A stretch of 12,549 bases of DNA, taken from the IMG/VR virus record IMGVR_UViG_2585427728_000006, positions 1 to 12,549 of that record; one strand, 5' to 3'. The position numbers and the translations under genes are program-made. The notes under the pieces were generated by a model, which saw only the letters and a program-made list of their open reading frames with translations, made no database searches and was not told where the DNA came from. Shown here in pieces: positions 1,635-12,549 of the stretch (its first letter is position 1; every line of letters starts with the position of its first letter). The DNA is from a virus. Its lineage: Duplodnaviria > Heunggongvirae > Uroviricota > Caudoviricetes.

Positions 1635-1853
1635 TTACATCCACATAATTTGCTGCCCTGACGGCAAGGGGTGCGGCCTCACGGCGTGGACTTCTCCCGG
1701 CTTCACGATGTATCGCTGTACCGACTCATAAGTGATGAACGTGGCGCTGCAATTCACGTTCTGACACTGGTGATAACGCTCTTTTGTCGTGTCAGTGATA
1801 TAGCGACTTGTACGCGCATGTGCGGCATGCTGGCATAAAGGACAATGAAACAT
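1635..1853 (-). CDS. ogr: P2-type late gene transcriptional activator Ogr (zinc-finger)
   Basis: 72-aa product from ATG at 1853: MFHCPLCQHAAHARTSRYITDTTKERYHQCQNVNCSATFITYESVQRYIV..., matching recalled P2 Ogr/OgrK with the C-x2-C...C-x4-C zinc motif. The 93-aa ORF-track version is an upstream extension. Confidence 0.9.
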   Translation of the reverse strand: MFHCPLCQHAAHARTSRYITDTTKERYHQCQNVNCSATFITYESVQRYIVKPGEVHAVRPHPLPSGQQIMWM

Positions 1854-1934
1854 CGCGAGCACCTCTTCCGGTTTTGTTGATGGTGCCATTTTAGTTAATT
1901 TACCCTTATAAAACAAACAGATAAAAACAAAATA

Positions 1935-2189
1935 TTACTCATCACCTTCTGTTTCGTACTCCACATCAGAAAGCCTGACCTCAAGCTCTAAGGACGTCGT
2001 GAAGCCGCTGTTATTCAGAAAATGTGTCACTTTAGTGATTGTCCAGTCCTGCTCGTCTATGACGCGCTTAAAGCCTGACACTTTAACCGGTGTTTCCGTG
2101 TAAATATCTGCCCGACCAGTAGCCAGGCTGATGGAGAACTCCGCTACACCCCGTTGCAGCTTATCCCACTTCGCCTGAGCGGCACGCAT
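1935..2189 (-). pseudogene. C-terminal fragment of P2 gpD-like tail protein (yegZ-like remnant)
   Basis: 84-aa ORF ending ...TTSLELEVRLSDVEYETEGDE resembles the C-terminus of P2 gpD (about 387 aa in P2). Same frame stays open upstream to about 2312 with no plausible start, so the N-terminal roughly 70 percent of D is missing. Confidence 0.75.
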
Positions 2190-3135
2190 GGCCTGTGCTT
2201 TCGTGGCATATACCGTGGTCAGGGCAAAAACGTTATCAGCCTCACCGGCCAGATGGTATGAGCCACCGGTCAGCTTTACCGGTCTGGCAAAAAGCCTGCG
2301 TGCTGCCGTGCATCACAGCTCACCGATTTACGTCAAACGTAATATTCTGGCCTCGACATTTATCCCGCATCCGTGGCTTTCCCAGCAGGATTTCAGCCGC
2401 TTTGCGCTGGATTTTCTGGTGTTCGGTAATGCGTTTCTGGAAAAGCGTTACAGCACCACCGGTAAGGTCATCAGACTGGAACCCTCACCGGCAAAATATC
2501 CCCGCCGTGGCGTGGAGGAGAATGTTTACTGGTGGGTGCCGTCCTTCAACGAGCCGACACCTTTCGCGCCCGGCTCCGTGTTTCATCTGCTGGAGCCGGA
2601 TATTAATCAGGAGCTGTACGGCATGCCGGAATATCTCAGCGCCCTTAACTCTGCCTGGCTGAATGAGTCAGCCACGCTGTTCCGCCGCAAGTATTACGAA
2701 AACGGCGCACATGCCGGATACATCATGTACGTCACTGATGCCGTGCAGGATCGCAACGATATCGAAATGCTTCGCGAAAACATGGTCAAGTCGAAAGGCC
2801 GCAACAACTTTAAAAATCTGTTTCTCTATGCCCCGCAGGGAAAAGCCGACGGCATTAAAATTATCCCGCTCAGTGAAGTGGCAACGAAGGACGATTTTTT
2901 TAATATCAAAAAAGCCAGCGCCGCTGACCTGCTGGACGCGCACCGCATCCCCTTTCAGTTGATGGGCGGCAAGCCGGAGAACGTCGGGTCGCTGGGTGAT
3001 ATTGAGAAAGTGGCAAAGGTCTTTGTCCGCAATGAGCTTATCCCGTTACAGGACAGGATCCGCGAGATAAACGGCTGGCTCGGTCAGGAGGTCATCCGCT
3101 TTAAAAACTACTCACTGGACACTGACAACGGCTGA
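2188..3135 (+). pseudogene. N-terminally truncated P2-like portal protein gpQ
   Basis: ORF product resembles P2-family portal protein and ends next to cos, as Q does in P2. Frame opens only at 2179 and the first ~40 codons overlap the D fragment on the opposite strand, so the genuine Q part probably begins near 2314 and lacks its N-terminus (P2 Q is about 344 aa). No P gene or late promoter upstream. Confidence 0.75.
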
Positions 3136-3323: not shown

Positions 3324-3653
3324 CGCCCGCTTCATGGGGCGGTTTTGATGCAATACATGAGCATCGTAATGCCATATCGTGACAGGATTATAGAACATGA
3401 AGGTATACTAACTTACACATGCAAAAAAACGCACACTCAGGCATTCTCTTTGGAATACAATATGGTAAAAATATGATCATTTGAAGCTGCATATCCGTGC
3501 AGATTGAAATCAATGATGCTGCCCCTTCGTTAAGACAGCCAGGCCGCAATCTCTTGAGCTCAAGTGGACATCTAAGACAGAAAAACAATTTAAAGGCAAA
3601 GTTTTCGTAATGGTATCTTTGTCACAGCACACGCTAAAAAGGAACTAAACCTC

Positions 3654-4718
3654 ATGAGCACTCAGCAAGTCCTCAACATCCCTACAGCCGTATCGCAAGC
3701 GACCATCGAAAAATGGTTGAAAGGACTGGAACAGACAACGGAATTAGCCTTTTTTCGCCGTGTTGGCGGGCGGCATGGCTTCAATGTTACGAGCCGCTGG
3801 GCAAGTACATTGGATAACTTGAATAAAACTCTGAATGACCCATCGAAGCAAGGTACGCCTGCAAACTTTTCAAATCTCCGTTTGATTACGTTAAAAATAA
3901 TCACTAGCGTAAACCATTATTATTCAATTGATGGTATTAAATCAGGAACCATTAATTTAATACCAAATATAATCAACTACCCTCACCTCGATAAAACATT
4001 TAGCTCAGTATTTCCAATAAAACTTGATGATAATACAGGACTTCCTTCGACTCCTGGGCATTTCATTACTTCCATCGAAAAAATGGGGGATGGTATTGCT
4101 GTAATATATTCCTATATTATTTTAAGAAAAATCCAAGGAAGGAGTAAGCTACGTAGCAATCAATATCCAGAGCAGTACTTCAACACTGTTTTCATCCCTA
4201 ATGATTTAAGCCGTATAGAATATCGGGTTGATAAATCACTAGGTAAAAGAGCGTCTGAAAAAGCGATGGCAGATTTGCGCGCAAAATTTAATGAATTACT
4301 CGTGGAACTTAATATTAAGTTAGCTGTTGAAACTATAAATTTCTACAAAGCAATTTCCAATATTTACCTTGACAAACAATATGGAAGACTTGTTCAGGTT
4401 AATTTCCTTGATCCAAATGGAGATGAGGATGCTGTTCTTCGTTGCAGAACAGACCCCAATTATGATGCCCGTTATCGCGAGGTTGTATCTAAAACTCAGA
4501 ACGGAACACCTCGCTCATTGACCCTTGAAGTTTCTGGCGTTGCAGTGCGATTAGATAGTAAAGTTGCAAACGAAACAATTTCAAATGAAATTGGTTTTGA
4601 ACCCAGCAAAACTGATTGGTCTACAAACAAATTTTGTGGGGATTTTTATTTTACACAAACAGCAGATCATCAGGTGCATTATGGGGTGATAAATGATTTA
4701 CTCACAAGAGCGAAATAA
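3654..4718 (+). CDS. Hypothetical protein, cargo gene 1 of cos-proximal three-gene operon (354 aa, no recognisable family)
   Basis: ATG at 3654 with AAGGA about 10 nt upstream; long ORF in a strongly AT-rich block; first gene of a co-directional tightly packed trio. No Walker A, RT, TIR or Old-like motifs seen. Confidence 0.75.
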   Translation: MSTQQVLNIPTAVSQATIEKWLKGLEQTTELAFFRRVGGRHGFNVTSRWASTLDNLNKTLNDPSKQGTPANFSNLRLITLKIITSVNHYYSIDGIKSGTINLIPNIINYPHLDKTFSSVFPIKLDDNTGLPSTPGHFITSIEKMGDGIAVIYSYIILRKIQGRSKLRSNQYPEQYFNTVFIPNDLSRIEYRVDKSLGKRASEKAMADLRAKFNELLVELNIKLAVETINFYKAISNIYLDKQYGRLVQVNFLDPNGDEDAVLRCRTDPNYDARYREVVSKTQNGTPRSLTLEVSGVAVRLDSKVANETISNEIGFEPSKTDWSTNKFCGDFYFTQTADHQVHYGVINDLLTRAK

Positions 4719-5127
4719 AAAAATGCGCTCATTAGTGTATAAACAAAGAGTACTCCTGGAGAATGCCGGAAGCTCTTCTGTTTTCATAAATAATGATTCT
4801 CACATATATTATACAAATTTACTAGAATATGTAGAGGGTGATCTTGATCGTAATATTTATACAATCCCAGTATTACGAAAAGCCATAAAAACTGACAATT
4901 ATGAACATTTGCTACGAGTTGTTCAATTTTTTAGTAGCAATACCTCTTGTTTATTTAACGTTAAATATTGCTACGAACTAGAAAACATGGAGTTTGAGGA
5001 CATACAAGCTGATGAATATACCAACTATATATTAAACGGAGTTGAACCTGTAACTGCCAATGGTTCTGAAATTGAAGACTTCAATCCAAAATATCTTTCA
5101 TTTTATTGCATAATAAACCTGGATTGA
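4693..5127 (+). CDS. Hypothetical small acidic protein, cargo gene 2 (144 aa; alternative start at 4723 gives 134 aa)
   Basis: ATG at 4693 preceded by GGGGTG; overlaps gene 1 by 26 nt; stop TGA 5125-5127 lies 5 nt before the gene 3 ATG. Asp/Glu-rich, no recognisable motif. Confidence 0.6.
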   Translation: MIYSQERNKKMRSLVYKQRVLLENAGSSSVFINNDSHIYYTNLLEYVEGDLDRNIYTIPVLRKAIKTDNYEHLLRVVQFFSSNTSCLFNVKYCYELENMEFEDIQADEYTNYILNGVEPVTANGSEIEDFNPKYLSFYCIINLD

Positions 5128-5132
5128 CTGTC

Positions 5133-5981
5133 ATGAACAAACAACAAATCACATGTGAGTTAGGCAAAAGGGTTCATTTTGAAGATGAAGCGAGTTTTAT
5201 TGAAACATTATACTCGGATATAGAAGTCATAATAAAACTAATGGAGCAATCTAGTGACAAGTATTATTGTGATGATGAAGATAAACTAAGCCATACAATT
5301 GTAGCCTCTCTTGTACACCTAGGTTACGATGCAACCGAACAAACAAAAAAAAATGGAAGTGTGGACATAACCGTTCGTCCGAAAAATGGAGGATATACAT
5401 GGATTGCTGAAGCAAAAATCGGATACGGGAACCAAAAAATATTCGAGGGGCTACTTCAGTTGCTTACTCGCTATGTTAAAAGAGATAATCATGCAGGCAT
5501 GGTTATCTATTATCAAAAATCAAAGTCATCTTATCATTTCAAACAATGGCTGAAATACATATACAACCATGAGTGGAAGGATTATTGTACAAAGAAAGGG
5601 TCATTAAAAAAAGCGACTCCGCTACTTTCTCATTTAAAAAGTACGGTTTGTCCGAAAGTCAAACAAGGCTGTTGTTATGCTGACATTGATGTCATCCAAC
5701 CTTCGACTGATGGTCTAAAACTTCGCTGCTTCTATATTGACGTGCATCATGACCCAATTGACAGTAGTGGTTTAAAGAATAAGTCAATCGCCTTTGGTCA
5801 AGCCCAAAATAGAATTAGAGATTTATATCACTTATGGAAGACAGGACAGTTCGACGGCAGTATGATAGATGAATTATTTGAAGAAATAAAAATATATCAT
5901 AGCAATGAACTTGACGAAGAATATGAAGATGAAGATGAAGATGAAGATGAAGATGAAGATTCGAATATAAACTCAAAATGA
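5133..5981 (+). CDS. Hypothetical protein with PD-(D/E)xK nuclease-like signature and poly-(Glu-Asp) C-terminal tail, cargo gene 3
   Basis: ATG at 5133 (the ORF-track start at 5106 is TTG). Contains GSVDITV...(14 aa)...WIAEAKIG, i.e. D78 and E93-x-K95, a spacing typical of PD-(D/E)xK cores; C-terminus EYEDEDEDEDEDEDSNINSK. Confidence 0.7.
   Translation: MNKQQITCELGKRVHFEDEASFIETLYSDIEVIIKLMEQSSDKYYCDDEDKLSHTIVASLVHLGYDATEQTKKNGSVDITVRPKNGGYTWIAEAKIGYGNQKIFEGLLQLLTRYVKRDNHAGMVIYYQKSKSSYHFKQWLKYIYNHEWKDYCTKKGSLKKATPLLSHLKSTVCPKVKQGCCYADIDVIQPSTDGLKLRCFYIDVHHDPIDSSGLKNKSIAFGQAQNRIRDLYHLWKTGQFDGSMIDELFEEIKIYHSNELDEEYEDEDEDEDEDEDSNINSK
5925..5960 (+). repeat. Perfect hexanucleotide tandem repeat (GAAGAT)x6 inside gene 3
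   Basis: Six exact tandem copies of GAAGAT, in frame, encoding (Glu-Asp)6. Confidence 0.95.
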
Positions 5982-5994
5982 ACACCAAGAATCA

Positions 5995-6028
5995 CCCCAT
6001 TAAGTTTAGACATCCTAACTTGATGGGG
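5995..6028. terminator. Putative hairpin between convergent cargo gene 3 and A
   Basis: CCCCATTAAG (5995-6004) pairs with CTTGATGGGG (6019-6028) with one G-U position and a 14-nt loop; no strong T-tract on either strand, so function is uncertain. Confidence 0.3.
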
Positions 6029-6116
6029 AATTGACTTTTAAGTCTGTAACCCTAGCCATCAAAAATAGATTCATTTTAAATAAAAATATATCCGTTACGC
6101 CCCAAAAAAAATTGAA

Positions 6117-8387
6117 TTAATTAGGAAAAACACTCCCAGTTGGAATTTTTTTAAATTTATATTTCCTCCCATCGAAACATACTGTCGCACCGCGTGCTAA
6201 TACCTGTGGTTCCCATTGATTCGGCGTAATACCCTCCTGAGCCAACTCGAATCTTATACGTGGCGTCTGTTCCCGTTCAGCTTTTGTCATTCGTCCTGAG
6301 GGCGCTATCTGATAAGGTTTTAATGGCTCACAGCTCTTTTGCTGGCGATTTGGTCGTGGCGCATCGTGTTTTAGTGCGCATCTGAGCCCCGTCACGACTT
6401 CAGGGTCATCCCAGCCGATAACCCCGCGCTCAATCAGATTCAACACCGCTGCTGCTTGCTCAGAAGGTATGGATGTCATAGCAGGATCGCCACCGCTAGT
6501 TAGCTTTCCACAGTTATTGACAGGACTCCGAGGCGCGGCGATGCCGCTTTTTAAAGTCAAAGGCTCAACGACCGGCACTTTCGGAACAATGCGCCAGTCC
6601 GTCGTTCTGGTGATATGAATATGACGCGCGCCGAGATGCGGCGCGTAAATGCCGACCACTCTCTCGACTTCTTCCTCGTACTCGTTAACTTCATCCGACG
6701 GACTACGGGCAACCCTGACAGTCTGACAATCGCGCGGAACATTTGCCCCACCCTGCGCGCTGATATACAACGCAAAATCACCACTGTCTGCGGCAGCGCG
6801 TGCAGCCTCGACGCGTTCGTCAAACTCATCAGCAATGCTGACGCCGCGAGGCAATTTGCGTAGTTCACGGTAAGCCCCCATTGTCGGCAGGCCAACCGTT
6901 TTAAATTGCGGAATGCGCCACGTTGACGCCCATGCGGTAACAGCCGCGGCAGTGTCTTTCAGCGGCCTGCCGGTATCGTTATCGAGCTGACCATCCAGTG
7001 CATAGCCATCGATGTTTTTTGAGATGTATTTCGCGATATATCCCGCAGCACCGCCCCGGTTAAGGTGTTTTGCCTGAAAACGGTTTCGCGCGGCTCCTCT
7101 TTCGTCACCATCCTCTTTGAGCGCATAGCGACGCATGATTTCGATAATCTGGTTACGCTGGCGTGGATTACAAAAAAGCATCATATGCCAGTGCGGCGTT
7201 CCGTCGTGGTGTGGCTCGACGACTCGCAAACCGTAGACCTGTAAATCATTATCCTTGAATGCCGTGCGCATCAGGCTCCAGATGCGGCAGAGATAACGCT
7301 GCGCATCCTTTGGATTAAATGCCTCATCATTCCAGCCGTGATTTAGCTGGACGGTTTTACTTTCGCCTTTTCCGACCTGACGTGTCGGGTGATACTTTGA
7401 CGGCGCGGTCAGCGTGATAAACATCCCCACATCACCCTCTGCGGCGGCGTAACGCTCAATACCGGCGATGGTGTTCATCAGCTCCATCCGGCGAATTTCT
7501 GGATTAGAAATACTGCCCATCACCTTACTGATAAGGTCGATGCGCTCGCCGGTTTCCCTGTTTTCAAGGTCACACGATTTAAGAAATTCCAGATTTGCCT
7601 GGCGGCGCGCACACACATCACGAATGGCATGTTTACTGGCATAAGGAGAACGGTCTTTATTCACCTCCCCGACAGCAATCAGTAACGCCTCATGCCAGCG
7701 CATACGCTGGCCTTTAAGCTGACTAATCCACCACTCATCGTTAAACAGACGGGCAATGGCAGAATATGCCTGCCTCGTGGTCATCTGTCCTTTACGGTAT
7801 TTTTTCCAGTAGAGAGGGGAAATATTGAAAGCACGTGCAGCGCCAGCAACATGACCATACAGATGCGCCTGCGCCTCATCTGTAAACAGCGATTCTTTCT
7901 CGCCATGTGCATCAACCCATGCATCGCAGAGTTCCTCATACATCATGAAAAGCTGCGATGAGATACGGGCGGCAAACTTTTTCAGCTCCTTGTCATTCAT
8001 CCCCGGCAGACGCGCATAATGGTCACGCTCTGCCAGAAACAGCAACGACGCGTCGGTGTTCATTTCATGGCGCTGATTCACGCGCTCAATACGCGGCCAT
8101 AAACGGCGCTGAAAAGTGGATGTGAGGAAATAAAATCCGTGCACCGGGCTTTTATTGCGCCGGATGTAGTCATAGCGTGAAGTAAACAGCGAGCGCAAAA
8201 AGTAAGGCAGGCGATTAATCGTGGATAAAACACCTTGCACCTGACGCATCTCGTCACGTGTAAGGGGTCTTTCGCGCCCGACGGCCTCGCGTGGCGCGTT
8301 CCATGCATAAGCACCGGTAAACGTCTCACCGGTGCCTGCGGCAAATGCTGACGGAGGGACAAAACGCCCGGAGGCTTTAACGGCCAT
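6117..8387 (-). CDS. A: P2-type replication initiation protein gpA (rolling-circle HUH endonuclease)
   Basis: 756 aa from ATG at 8387 (MAVKASGRFVPP...), closely matching recalled P2 gpA, including the HWHMMLF (HUH) and YIAKYISK motifs. The ORF-track start at 8429 is TTG. Confidence 0.9.
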   Translation of the reverse strand: MAVKASGRFVPPSAFAAGTGETFTGAYAWNAPREAVGRERPLTRDEMRQVQGVLSTINRLPYFLRSLFTSRYDYIRRNKSPVHGFYFLTSTFQRRLWPRIERVNQRHEMNTDASLLFLAERDHYARLPGMNDKELKKFAARISSQLFMMYEELCDAWVDAHGEKESLFTDEAQAHLYGHVAGAARAFNISPLYWKKYRKGQMTTRQAYSAIARLFNDEWWISQLKGQRMRWHEALLIAVGEVNKDRSPYASKHAIRDVCARRQANLEFLKSCDLENRETGERIDLISKVMGSISNPEIRRMELMNTIAGIERYAAAEGDVGMFITLTAPSKYHPTRQVGKGESKTVQLNHGWNDEAFNPKDAQRYLCRIWSLMRTAFKDNDLQVYGLRVVEPHHDGTPHWHMMLFCNPRQRNQIIEIMRRYALKEDGDERGAARNRFQAKHLNRGGAAGYIAKYISKNIDGYALDGQLDNDTGRPLKDTAAAVTAWASTWRIPQFKTVGLPTMGAYRELRKLPRGVSIADEFDERVEAARAAADSGDFALYISAQGGANVPRDCQTVRVARSPSDEVNEYEEEVERVVGIYAPHLGARHIHITRTTDWRIVPKVPVVEPLTLKSGIAAPRSPVNNCGKLTSGGDPAMTSIPSEQAAAVLNLIERGVIGWDDPEVVTGLRCALKHDAPRPNRQQKSCEPLKPYQIAPSGRMTKAEREQTPRIRFELAQEGITPNQWEPQVLARGATVCFDGRKYKFKKIPTGSVFPN

Positions 8388-8652
8388 ATGAGCCAAAAGC
8401 CTCTGAACAACGCTTGCTGAGTTGCTCAACCTGCGCGTTTAAATCAGCAAAAGACTTTGCGCTTCCGGTCAGAATATCGTGATGCATCAGGCCGGAAACA
8501 AGCTGGCTTAATTTCGGATAATAACCAACCACCGCCAGCCATTCCTGACCGGCGTTTTTACCGCTTTCCGCTCTCTTTTTCTCGTGGAGAATAAACTGAA
8601 AGCTGTCACTGGTAACGACATAACGTTCGCCAATTTCAATACGAATACTCAT
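8377..8652 (-). CDS. P2 early-operon hypothetical protein (position of P2 orf83)
   Basis: 91-aa ORF; its ATG (8650-8652) overlaps the stop of the upstream gene, and its own stop overlaps the start of A; position between B and A as in P2. Confidence 0.7.
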   Translation of the reverse strand: MSIRIEIGERYVVTSDSFQFILHEKKRAESGKNAGQEWLAVVGYYPKLSQLVSGLMHHDILTGSAKSFADLNAQVEQLSKRCSEAFGSYGR

Positions 8653-9462: not shown

Positions 9463-9963
9463 TTAATGCAGATATTGCTCTGGTTTTACCGACGTCAGAA
9501 TTGTCGGTGCATACTCAAACAGGCTGAATAATTCACGTAATGCACGGAATAAAGCATCACGCCAGTAACATGATTCTTCATTAATTCGCCAGTATGGCTG
9601 GTTGAATTCTTTTTCAGTCAATCCGGCATGCATAAATAAAGTACGACGCTGACTGACTGTTAAAAAACTAATATATGCATACTCACTTGCGCCAACCTGA
9701 CGGCGTTTGGAGAATGCCCCACGCAATTCATCAATTGCACAAACCAGCCGTTCACGTTCGACGTCGTTCATTTCTTCAAAACGCATCGTTGCGTGACGCT
9801 GTTTTAACTGCGCATGGAAGCAAACCGTTAGCCGTTCGCGTTCCATCATCTGATTATAATAATCGCATGTCTCCTGCCAGCGAGGGACGGCCAGATGCTT
9901 ACCAATTATCCGGCGCATAGCTGCTGGCTGTTTTTCAACGAGATTGAGCGTCATCACTGTCAT
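9463..9963 (-). CDS. B: P2-type replication protein gpB (helicase-loader-like)
   Basis: 166 aa, MTVMTLNLVEKQPAAMRRIIGKHLAVPRWQ..., matching recalled P2 gpB over its whole length. Confidence 0.9.
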   Translation of the reverse strand: MTVMTLNLVEKQPAAMRRIIGKHLAVPRWQETCDYYNQMMERERLTVCFHAQLKQRHATMRFEEMNDVERERLVCAIDELRGAFSKRRQVGASEYAYISFLTVSQRRTLFMHAGLTEKEFNQPYWRINEESCYWRDALFRALRELFSLFEYAPTILTSVKPEQYLH

Positions 9964-10130
9964 TTCCAGACCCTCCGGCTTTTCAGAAAGGTCAGAGTCT
10001 TTTTTAACGGACTCTGTTTTTTGGTGCGGATAATGATTCCCTTACGCCCCTTACCGTGGGTGATGGTGAAGTCAATCGCCCTGGGGCTTTCGTTACGCAA
10101 TAACTGAGCAATACAACGAGGCTCATTCAT
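9960..10130 (-). CDS. Small hypothetical protein (position of P2 orf78)
   Basis: 56 aa from ATG at 10130 with a perfect AAGGAG upstream; the ORF-track start at 10154 is GTG. Confidence 0.6.
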   Translation of the reverse strand: MNEPRCIAQLLRNESPRAIDFTITHGKGRKGIIIRTKKQSPLKKTLTFLKSRRVWK

Positions 10131-10140
10131 ACGGTTCTCC

Positions 10141-10416
10141 TTAACGTGGTTCACCGAGACCTAACCACATCAACCAGCCGTCACGAATCTCTTTAGGACG
10201 GCTTTCATAAGCCAGTTTTAGTCCGTTATTCCATGCCGGAAGGTATACCCAATATTCACCAGCACGCCCCGATACTGACTGAGGGTCAGTAATCTCAATA
10301 ACTGGTAATTTCCCTTTCTCAATCATGCCCCTTACAGCTCTTGGAGTTTTACCAATGAGTTTTGCAAACTCCTGATAAGGCACGGCATCAGTCACGCTTA
10401 CAAGCTGTCTATTCAT
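10141..10416 (-). CDS. cox: P2-type Cox protein (excisionase / repressor of Pc)
   Basis: 91 aa, ...PYQEFAKLIGK...GRAGEYWVYLPAWNNGLKLAYESRPKEIRDGWLMWLGLGEPR, matching recalled P2 Cox; first gene of the leftward early operon. Confidence 0.9.
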   Translation of the reverse strand: MNRQLVSVTDAVPYQEFAKLIGKTPRAVRGMIEKGKLPVIEITDPQSVSGRAGEYWVYLPAWNNGLKLAYESRPKEIRDGWLMWLGLGEPR

Positions 10417-10537
10417 CTGCTACGATTCTCCCTTAGTGCTTCTAATGGCTCCTAATGGCTAATTATTGCCTAAAAGGATAACTCCAGAAGCACAACATTT
10501 CACACTATCAGCAAGAAATTACGCAATCGGAGTAATT
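10417..10537. promoter_or_regulatory. Divergent cox / C control region (Pe/Pc promoters and operator) with tandem 10-bp direct repeats
   Basis: Intergenic region between divergent cox and C; TCTAATGGCT / CCTAATGGCT tandem repeats at 10441-10460 are candidate C-repressor half-sites. Exact promoter elements not assigned. Confidence 0.6.
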
Positions 10538-10837
10538 ATGTCAATAGACGTTTCGGAGAAGTTGAAGCTAATCCGTGAATCTGAAAGGTTAAACCGTAAA
10601 GAATTCAGTGAATTAACTGGTGTAGCCTACAGCTCACTTTCGAGCTATGAGAGCCGGTCAAAAAACGCTGGAGTTGAAGCCATAATGAAGGTCTTACAAC
10701 ATCCCAGATTTACTAAATATACTTTGTGGTTCATGACTGATCAGGTAGCTCCAGAAGCCGGGCAAATTGCGCCCGCTCTCGCACACTTTGGGCAAAACGA
10801 AACAACGTCGCCCCACTCCGGTCAAAAGACTGGTTAA
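10538..10837 (+). CDS. C: P2-type immunity repressor C
   Basis: 99 aa from ATG at 10538; C-terminal half ...FTKYTLWFMTDQVAPEAGQIAPALAHFGQNETTSPHSGQKTG matches recalled P2 C; N-terminal DNA-binding part looks divergent from P2. Confidence 0.85.
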   Translation: MSIDVSEKLKLIRESERLNRKEFSELTGVAYSSLSSYESRSKNAGVEAIMKVLQHPRFTKYTLWFMTDQVAPEAGQIAPALAHFGQNETTSPHSGQKTG

Positions 10838-10952
10838 CAATTTATCGTGAATATATTCATCACAAGTGCCTACTATTGGTGGCTAAATTTCAGCCACCAC
10901 GAAAAAAGCGATTAGTAGTAGCAAAAAAAAGTACCACTCGGAGGGTTTTCTG

Positions 10953-11966
10953 ATGGCAATCAAAAAACTCGATGATGGTCGATATGAAGTGGACATCCGC
11001 CCTACTGGACGTAACGGAAAACGCATCCGTAGGAAGTTTGATAAGAAAAGCGAAGCTGTCGCTTTCGAAAAATACACGTTGTACAACCACCACAATAAAG
11101 AATGGCTATCAAAACCAACAGACAAACGACGTCTGTCGGAACTGACACAGATCTGGTGGGATTTAAAGGGTAAACACGAAGAGCATGGGAAATCTAATCT
11201 TGGAAAAATTGAAATCTTCACAAAAATAACGAATGACCCATGCGCATTTCAAATCACGAAATCCCTTATCAGCCAGTACTGCGCCACCCGAAGAAGTCAG
11301 GGTATTAAACCTTCGAGTATCAATCGTGATTTAACATGTATTAGCGGCATGTTTACAGCCCTGATTGAAGCGGAGTTATTCTTTGGTGAGCACCCTATCA
11401 GAGGGACAAAGAGGCTTAAGGAGGAAAAACCAGAAACAGGCTATCTCACACAGGAAGAAATTGCCTTACTGCTTGCAGCACTTGACGGCGACAACAAAAA
11501 GATTGCGATTCTTTGCCTGAGTACAGGAGCACGTTGGGGAGAAGCAGCTCGTTTAAAAGCAGAAAATATCATCCATAACCGCGTCACGTTTGTTAAAACG
11601 AAAACAAACAAACCACGCACCGTCCCGATCTCAGAGGCTGTTGCCAAAATGATCGCGGATAACAAACGAGGTTTTTTATTCCCTGATGCTGATTACCCTC
11701 GCTTCAGACGAACAATGAAAGCAATAAAACCGGATTTGCCAACGGGGCAAGCCACACATGCACTAAGGCACAGCTTTGCCACTCATTTCATGATTAATGG
11801 AGGAAGTATTATCACGCTACAACGGATACTAGGTCACACGCGGATTGAGCAAACTATGGTTTACGCTCATTTTGCGCCAGAGTACCTTCAGGACGCCATT
11901 TCTCTTAATCCGCTAAGAGGTGGTACTGAAGCCGAGAGTGTCCACACAGTGTCCACAGTAGAGTAA
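10953..11966 (+). CDS. int: P2-type integrase (tyrosine recombinase)
   Basis: 337 aa, GGAGGG SD upstream; C-terminal catalytic region HALRHSFATHF...LGHTRIEQTMVYAHF with the catalytic Tyr; downstream of C as in P2 and adjacent to the att core. Confidence 0.9.
   Translation: MAIKKLDDGRYEVDIRPTGRNGKRIRRKFDKKSEAVAFEKYTLYNHHNKEWLSKPTDKRRLSELTQIWWDLKGKHEEHGKSNLGKIEIFTKITNDPCAFQITKSLISQYCATRRSQGIKPSSINRDLTCISGMFTALIEAELFFGEHPIRGTKRLKEEKPETGYLTQEEIALLLAALDGDNKKIAILCLSTGARWGEAARLKAENIIHNRVTFVKTKTNKPRTVPISEAVAKMIADNKRGFLFPDADYPRFRRTMKAIKPDLPTGQATHALRHSFATHFMINGGSIITLQRILGHTRIEQTMVYAHFAPEYLQDAISLNPLRGGTEAESVHTVSTVE
11938..11957. repeat. Tandem direct repeats GTGTCCACA x2: putative Int arm-type binding sites
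   Basis: Two exact 9-bp copies 11 bp apart at the 3' end of int, about 90 bp from the att core; a related GTCCACACA occurs in the other arm at 1574-1583. Confidence 0.5.
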
Positions 11967-12045: not shown

Positions 12046-12072
12046 AATCTCCCTTACACGGGCTTATTTTTT
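12046..12072. repeat. P2-type att core, right copy (prophage/chromosome junction next to int)
   Basis: 27-bp exact direct repeat of 1507-1533, followed by one extra T. Confidence 0.85.
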
Positions 12073-12231: not shown

Positions 12232-12549
12232 TCACTCTCCACATTTGAATGTCAGACGAGCGACACCATGTAATCCTACACCTTCTGTCTTCAGCTCAAC
12301 TATTTGCATTTTTTTGCCCTGAGTAACACAGAAATGAGTTGCATCATTTTTTACTATATTTTCTGCACCAGATATTCTACCCCTGGCTAAAGAAGCTTCG
12401 GCTTCGGTGTAGTATTGGTTATCGAGTTTACGCTGAATATTACTTTTATATGCAAGACCAAATTTACCGATACTTGTCTCATCATTATGCACAGCACAAC
12501 CAGACATAATAAAAATACTAATTAATGATATAGCAGCTATCTTTTTCAT
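12232..12549 (-). CDS. yegR: Putative lipoprotein YegR
   Basis: Complete 105-aa ORF (start codon is the last 3 nt of the window) with signal peptide and lipobox (IFIMSGC); matches recalled E. coli YegR. Confidence 0.85.
   Translation of the reverse strand: MKKIAAISLISIFIMSGCAVHNDETSIGKFGLAYKSNIQRKLDNQYYTEAEASLARGRISGAENIVKNDATHFCVTQGKKMQIVELKTEGVGLHGVARLTFKCGE

Follow-up and report, generated by a model that had tools for sequence, protein, structure and literature searches.

The switch region between cox and C of the prophage analysed here most probably represents a genetic switch of the P2 Hy dis type, in which the C repressor would act at repeats around the early promoter Pe and a tandem repeat in the same spacer would take part in the control of the repressor promoter Pc by Cox. 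A probability of about 0.8 is given to this reading as a whole. The immunity type appears to be the known type of P2 Hy dis and E. coli B, an assignment that rests on a type-specific primer sequence, on operator geometry and on the strain B origin attributed to Hy dis. A distinct immunity specificity had been proposed in the original prediction; it very probably differs from that of P2, but it is not new, apparently being the Hy dis type, which is common in E. coli.

The window, that is, the whole stretch of DNA analysed (12,549 nucleotides), extends from yegQ (1-1362) to yegR (12232-12549) and encloses a defective P2-like prophage of approximately 10.6 kb, inserted between yegQ/cyaR and yegR. 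Its principal features outside the switch are:

1635-1916, minus strand: ogr.
1935-2189, minus strand: C-terminal fragment of tail gene D.
2188-3135, plus strand: N-terminally truncated portal gene Q.
3654-5981, plus strand: three ORFs in a low-GC block.
6117-8429, minus strand: replication gene A, followed by small early ORFs.
9463-9963, minus strand: B.
10953-11966, plus strand: int, a P2-type tyrosine integrase (Pfam Int_N and Phage_integrase) that is approximately 97-100% identical to P2 at the nucleotide level in the portion compared.
12046-12072: attL core, a 27-bp direct repeat, AATCTCCCTTACACGGGCTTATTTTTT, with the attR copy at 1507-1533.

The D fragment directly adjoins the Q fragment (1935-3135); capsid, tail and lysis genes have been lost and all late genes are absent, which leaves a remnant prophage. 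None of the complete E. coli genomes in the collection matches 80% or more of the window at one place. A full-length gene for the small RNA CyaR (RyeE) was identified at 1445-1530 on the plus strand (Rfam RF00112, 100.7 bits). Its 3' end overlaps the attR core repeat at 1507-1533; integration thus took place at the end of this gene, the terminator of which the prophage rebuilds.

Between the portal fragment and gene A lie three overlapping or adjacent ORFs on the plus strand (3654-4718, 4693-5127 and 5106-5981), within a block (3500-6050) whose G+C content is 34-41% compared with approximately 50% in the flanks. This block occupies a variable slot, filled by old and tin in P2 and by SIR2/ATPase, ABC-three-component or reverse-transcriptase genes in other strains. 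At the curated threshold, no Pfam family matched any of the three ORFs; the third gave a weak match to the PADLOC candidate PDC-S54 (E = 1.6e-7) and a sub-threshold match to DUF7164. The block is present in just two of 5426 complete E. coli genomes, those of A23 (from a capybara) and ZH177 (from a pig), and is a candidate for an uncharacterised anti-phage system.

The two regulatory genes of the switch are arranged as cox (minus strand), a spacer of 121 bp, C (plus strand) and int (plus strand), with C at the head of a C-int operon and facing cox:

10141-10416, minus strand: cox, encoding the Cox protein of 91 aa, Pc repressor and excision directionality factor (full-length match to Pfam Phage_Cox, E = 1.7e-42).
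10538-10837, plus strand: C, encoding the immunity repressor of the P2 C family, 99 aa, with its ATG at 10538 and a stop codon ending at 10837.

Residues 1-99 of C aligned to residues 1-99 of P2 C (PDB 2xcj/2l49) with an E value of 2.5e-39, and Pfam HTH_3 was found over residues 9-54. Identity to P2 C (AF063097) is 64.6% overall (64 of 99 residues) and is unevenly distributed, with 24 of 55 residues identical in positions 1-55 (44%) and 40 of 44 in positions 56-99; the description of C as P2-like in its C-terminal part and divergent in its N-terminal part was thus correct. The C peptide given in the original prediction is the product of the ORF at 10538-10837, the start that it implied being one base off. 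Residues strictly conserved in the C family comprise Arg13, Glu16, Tyr37, Glu38, Lys60, Tyr61, Pro72 and Gly75-His83 (PMC2995052); all of them are present in the window protein and are invariant in a four-way alignment. Five residues of P2 C, Tyr31, Thr33, Ser35, Tyr36 and Arg41, have been proposed to contact bases, and three of these five are changed in the window protein (T33S, Y36S and R41S), so that a specificity unlike that of P2 C is to be expected. The specificity of C very probably differs from that of P2 C. The divergent DNA-binding half, together with the absence of the P2 operator ATCTAAAC from the window, also agrees with the earlier view of the prophage as a P2 relative whose repressor would be heteroimmune to P2. 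On alignment to P2, neither the N-terminus of C nor the operator was identical to its P2 counterpart, and heteroimmunity to P2 therefore stands.

The divergence from P2 is confined to a cassette that extends to either side of the spacer:

10250-10756: divergent immunity cassette of approximately 500 bp, delimited by windowed identity to P2 (AF063097).

Identity to P2 within the cassette is 43-80% in 30-nt windows, compared with 27-30 matches per 30-nt window in the flanks, the sole exception being 26 of 30 at 10907-10936 (i.e. 87-100% identity). The cassette spans the N-terminal winged-helix half of Cox, both promoters, the whole of the 121-bp spacer and approximately the first 73 codons of C. 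Cox is identical to P2 Cox at 76 of 91 residues, all of the differences falling in residues 2-50. The cassette holds both predicted DNA-binding domains and all of the predicted operator sites.

This module is widespread. A segment of 861 nt (10100-10960, from the end of orf78 through cox and C into int) is 100% identical to Escherichia phage vB_EcoM-720R8 (ON470606), which lies at the same chromosomal site, and the same segment is present at 99% identity or above in 349 of 5426 complete E. coli genomes (approximately 6%). The exact C protein is encoded on at least 1000 contigs. In E. coli B REL606 (NC_012967) and in AS19, the 697 nt from cox through C contain one difference, a synonymous one at 10705, and the prophage occupies the same yegQ-yegR site; the C and Cox proteins of the window are those of REL606 and AS19. 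Phage P2 Hy dis is reported to be a product of recombination between P2 and the defective prophage carried by strain B (Cohen 1959, Virology 7:112). Hy dis is said to have been placed in immunity class II of the P2-like coliphages by Karlsson et al. in 2006, and its switch had reportedly been characterised biochemically by Renberg-Eriksson et al. in 2001, more than 20 years ago. Literature searches on how Hy dis arose in strain B, and on the P2-like defective prophage of REL606/BL21, yielded nothing beyond the Haggard-Ljungquist papers.

Independent markers of the Hy dis type were also found in the window. Primer A3-44, CCTTTCAGATTCACGG, is a P2 Hy dis-specific PCR primer (Methods of PMC1904268), and it matches exactly within C:

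10573-10588, minus strand: match to primer A3-44 (16 of 16), in the divergent part of C; no shuffled sequence matched.

The identity of the window C to P2 C, 64.6%, is near the 63% published for P2 C and Hy dis C (PMC1904268). Membership of one immunity class has been taken to require C proteins that are at least 95% identical (quoted in PMC3448106). The identity of WPhi C and Hy dis C has been published as 44%, which is discrepant with the 49.5% obtained here between WPhi C and the window C. Hy dis Cox is reported to carry Glu33 and Thr25 (PMC3936717). The window Cox has Glu33 as in Hy dis, and Thr24-Pro25, a pair also found in E. coli B, against the published Thr25. The proline published at position 25 of WPhi Cox falls at column 24 of the alignment, and the Cox position given in PMC3936717 is likely to be off by one, judging from these sequences.

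A scan for consensus promoters and terminators between 10300 and 10960 returned no matches, and both promoters were therefore placed by homology to the annotated P2 record:

10516-10544, minus strand: Pe, the early promoter as read from the sequence, with TTGACA at 10544-10539, a spacer of 17 nt and TAATTT at 10521-10516.
10441-10466, plus strand: Pc, the inferred repressor promoter, with the -35 equivalent TCTAAT at 10441-10446 and the -10 AATTAT at 10461-10466, from alignment to P2 (AF063097).

The geometry of Pe is that of the annotated P2 Pe, in which the -35 TTGACA likewise overlaps the start codon of C and the -10 follows 17 nt on. The Hy dis operator consists of 8-bp half-sites placed around the Pe -35 with their centres 26 bp, or 2.5 helical turns, apart (PMC1904268, PMC2995052), one of them bearing a natural mutation (PMC1904268). 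The window contains a pair with this geometry, namely 8-bp repeats at 26 bp that flank the -35 and differ by one mismatch:

10527-10534, plus strand: probable C operator half-site TCGGAGTA, in the Pe spacer and overlapping the GGAG Shine-Dalgarno sequence of C.
10553-10560, plus strand: probable C operator half-site TCGGAGAA, upstream of the Pe -35 and within codons 6-8 of C.

The two 8-mers match at seven of eight positions, lie on either side of the TTGACA at 10539-10544 and are the only TCGGAGWA sites in the 12.5-kb window; the 7/8 match fits the natural mutation published for Hy dis. Taken blind, such a pair is unremarkable, as three 7/8 pairs with lags of 12-44 occur in 10417-10600 where approximately 2.3 are expected (an estimate). 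With the geometry fixed beforehand, the chance of finding one falls to approximately 0.004-0.01 by an analytic estimate. The C operator of the window is thus most likely the TCGGAGTA/TCGGAGAA pair, the exact nucleotides of each half-site being those suggested by the published geometry. No matching pair at a lag of 26 was found in the Pe-proximal region of the Klebsiella phage ST16-OXA48phi5.4, a region too different to provide evidence of covariation of the half-sites.

An operator made of direct repeats on both sides of the Pe -10, the arrangement of P2, was also considered. The pairs were AGCACAAC/AGCAAGAA at a lag of 20, picked out by eye, and AGAAATTA/AGTAATTA at a lag of 17. Both were rejected; a P2-like O2 is unlikely at the downstream position because this falls in a polymorphic stretch:

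10491-10515: polymorphic stretch downstream of the Pe -10, at the position of the P2 O2, with no sign of constraint.

The tandem repeats of 10 bp noticed originally in the cox-C spacer are present and lie at its other end:

10441-10450 and 10451-10460, plus strand: tandem 10-bp repeat TCTAATGGCT/CCTAATGGCT, corresponding to two of the phased boxes, covering the Pc -35 equivalent and ending shortly before the -10.
10437-10475, minus strand: four cox-box-like 9-mers, TTAGAAGCA, TTAGGAGCC, TAATTAGCC and TTTTAGGCA, in 10-bp phase, a putative Cox array.

The match at a lag of 10 extends over 13 nt with one mismatch (10438-10450 against 10448-10460) and is not random, as none of 5000 dinucleotide-preserving shuffles of the 121-bp spacer contained a run as long at lags of 8-12. 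The cox-boxes of P2 have the consensus TTAAA(G/C)NC(A/C), are spaced by 10-11 bp and overlap Pc, which Cox represses (PMC3936717). Measured from the ATG of cox, the boxes lie at 21/31/41/51 in the window, at 24/33/43 in P2 and at 20/30/40/51 in ST16-OXA48phi5.4. The window array matches the P2 consensus at 25 of 36 positions, a score equalled or exceeded in 62 of 1000 shuffles, which is marginal; the corresponding figure for P2 itself is 13 of 1000. The tandem units match the consensus at just 6-7 of nine positions. In the attL arm, between int and the core, the best-scoring boxes are identical in sequence to those of the Cox site annotated in P2 attP, consistent with the ability of Hy dis Cox to complement a P2 cox mutant (PMC3936717). 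The stretch holding Pc and the repeat is better conserved with the Klebsiella phage than is the Pe-proximal half of the spacer.

Since the fit to the P2 cox-box consensus is moderate, it is judged rather more probable than otherwise that the tandem repeat and its neighbours constitute a Cox-binding array, and a role confined to Pc architecture is regarded as unlikely. The latter explanation would make the repeat an old slippage duplication of 10 bp that provides the spacer or core of Pc and binds no protein. The weak match to the cox-box consensus and the placement of the repeat, which covers the -35 equivalent of Pc and ends shortly before its -10, favour it, and a change of copy number would alter the spacing of Pc, which would alone be enough to account for the absence of variants with one or three copies. 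Against this, boxes phased at 10 bp occur at the same offsets in P2 and in the Klebsiella phage and are not tandem duplicates of one another, P2 Cox covers the corresponding stretch (PMC3936717), and the unselected flanks of the repeat, 10417-10433 and 10471-10490, are invariant as well.

The conservation of the repeat was apparent among 51 IMG/VR contigs, each of which has exactly two copies and the exact 37-nt repeat segment; no variant with one copy or three was found in IMG/VR. When loci were collected from the side of the C gene instead, 50 of these 51 came back, so that the repeat is invariant whichever route of collection is used. The full locus was compared in 48 IMG/VR loci with the module. 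Positions 10417-10490, including the cox-box array, are invariant in all 48. Eleven of the 12 variable positions of the spacer lie within the 25 nt of 10491-10515. In agreement with an operator around the Pe -35, two singleton variants are the sole changes in 10516-10560, and one variant falls in the half-site at 10527-10534. An identical C is encoded in 47 of the 48 loci; the sequence of one locus differs nearly throughout from 10785 onwards (the equivalent of 10785-10836) and yields another C-terminal tail of C. The stretch at 10491-10515 is a mutational hot spot in a switch that is almost invariant elsewhere; it lies around the predicted start of Pe and the zone shared by the transcripts from Pe and Pc.

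A perfect 8-nt inverted repeat, GTGCTTCT/AGAAGCAC (10436-10443 and 10486-10493), brackets Pc and the tandem repeat. It was rejected as a regulatory hairpin: the plus strand folds with z = -3.8, but a single plus-strand transcript over the stretch is not expected, the Pe leader on the minus strand folds with z = -1.5 and the right arm is polymorphic. The inverted repeat probably arose by chance.

Two further roles for the tandem repeat are jointly regarded as improbable: a variant Cox operator matched to the divergent winged helix of Cox, or a low-affinity C site through which C would autoregulate Pc. If the repeat were a specificity determinant of its own, the swapped cassette would be a unit of two repressors and two operators, beyond a simple repressor swap, and if it were a variant Cox operator, cross-repression of Pc between heteroimmune phages would be module-specific.

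It could also be supposed that C of a dead prophage is a silent relic that confers no immunity, as the deletion of all late genes would have relaxed selection for phage functions. This is very improbable. C, cox, int, the GGAG sequence, Pc and Pe are intact and are base-for-base those of vB_EcoM-720R8, and the spread of the exact C protein over at least 1000 contigs and 47 of 48 IMG/VR loci is likewise difficult to reconcile with a relic. The suggestion in the original prediction that the repressor may still be active is plausible, given the gene, its GGAG Shine-Dalgarno sequence and the two intact promoters, identical to those of complete prophages.

Least credible is the proposal that the tandem repeats are the operator of a C protein with a distinct and possibly undescribed specificity, for although P2-family C proteins bind direct repeats (PMC2995052) and this one stands out most among the direct repeats of the spacer and is invariant in nature, it sits on Pc at the cox end, 56-80 bp from the -10 and -35 of Pe, the promoter at the C end on which the repressor acts, the C half-sites of known systems lie 22-34 bp apart from centre to centre and flank elements of Pe rather than adjoining at 10 bp, the module is of the E. 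coli B/Hy dis type, whose operator has been mapped around the Pe -35, and the repeat region is the better conserved with a Klebsiella phage that has an 89% identical Cox and a different C recognition helix.

Taken together, these data suggest the following model of a Hy dis-type switch, in which the Hy dis operator geometry and heteroimmunity are taken from the literature, and the identities, positions of elements and conservation from the present analysis. The cassette of approximately 500 bp is the immunity module carried by the prophage of E. coli B and by origin would be that of P2 Hy dis (class II). As in P2, Pc and Pe face each other in the 121-bp spacer, with Pc driving C-int rightwards and Pe driving cox-B-A leftwards, and the product of each operon would silence the opposing promoter. 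Dimers of C would bind TCGGAGTA (10527-10534) and TCGGAGAA (10553-10560) around the Pe -35; binding there would block Pe and thereby protect against phages of the Hy dis type, P2 and WPhi being unaffected. The tandem repeat over Pc, as part of the array phased at 10 bp, would bind Cox, which would repress Pc. The nucleotides assigned to the half-sites, binding of the repeat by Cox and expression of C from the remnant are what we infer. It is a reasonable prediction that the host would exclude Hy dis-type phages and remain open to infection by P2 and WPhi.

Among the P2-like coliphages, at least seven to ten classes of immunity are distinguished. The type present in the window is almost certainly that of P2 Hy dis and E. 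coli B, which has long been known and whose switch has already been characterised. For purposes of annotation, the remnant should protect its host from Hy dis-type P2-like phages and not from P2. The locus also offers a caution, in that a conspicuous repeat in a switch need not be the operator of the repressor; here, an inconspicuous pair of 8-mers probably is, and the striking repeat belongs to the promoter opposite.

Comparison with known systems places the switch among the P2-like phages as follows. The switch of P2 has the same gene order, convergent-promoter layout and overlap of the Pe -35 with the start codon of C, a spacer of 114 bp compared with 121 bp in the window, a nearly identical C-terminal dimerisation part of C and C-terminal half of Cox, and the same Cox boxes in its attP arm as in the attL arm of the window. 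It differs in its operator, since the P2 half-sites O1 and O2, ATCTAAAC, lie 22 bp apart and flank the Pe -10, whereas the candidate operator of the window flanks the -35 at 26 bp. WPhi (immunity class III) shares the C and Cox families and the use of direct-repeat operators, but its C and Cox are approximately 50% (49.5%) and 44% identical to the window proteins, respectively, and its half-sites, of 10 bp each at a spacing of 34 bp, lie on both sides of the Pe -10 (PMC1904268). The Klebsiella phage ST16-OXA48phi5.4 is closer, with Cox 89% and C 78% identical and the phased array over Pc conserved; it differs in the recognition helix of C and in the Pe-proximal sequence, and so probably represents another immunity type. 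Escherichia phage vB_EcoM-720R8 differs from the window in that it appears to keep a full-size prophage (34.8-kb record). In the prophage of E. coli B the set of deletions is another and smaller one; the window has lost all late genes, and its cargo genes in the slot from the portal fragment to gene A are different. In the cox-C module, the primer match, the half-site geometry, Glu33 of Cox and the integration site, the window and the Hy dis/E. coli B prophage are alike.
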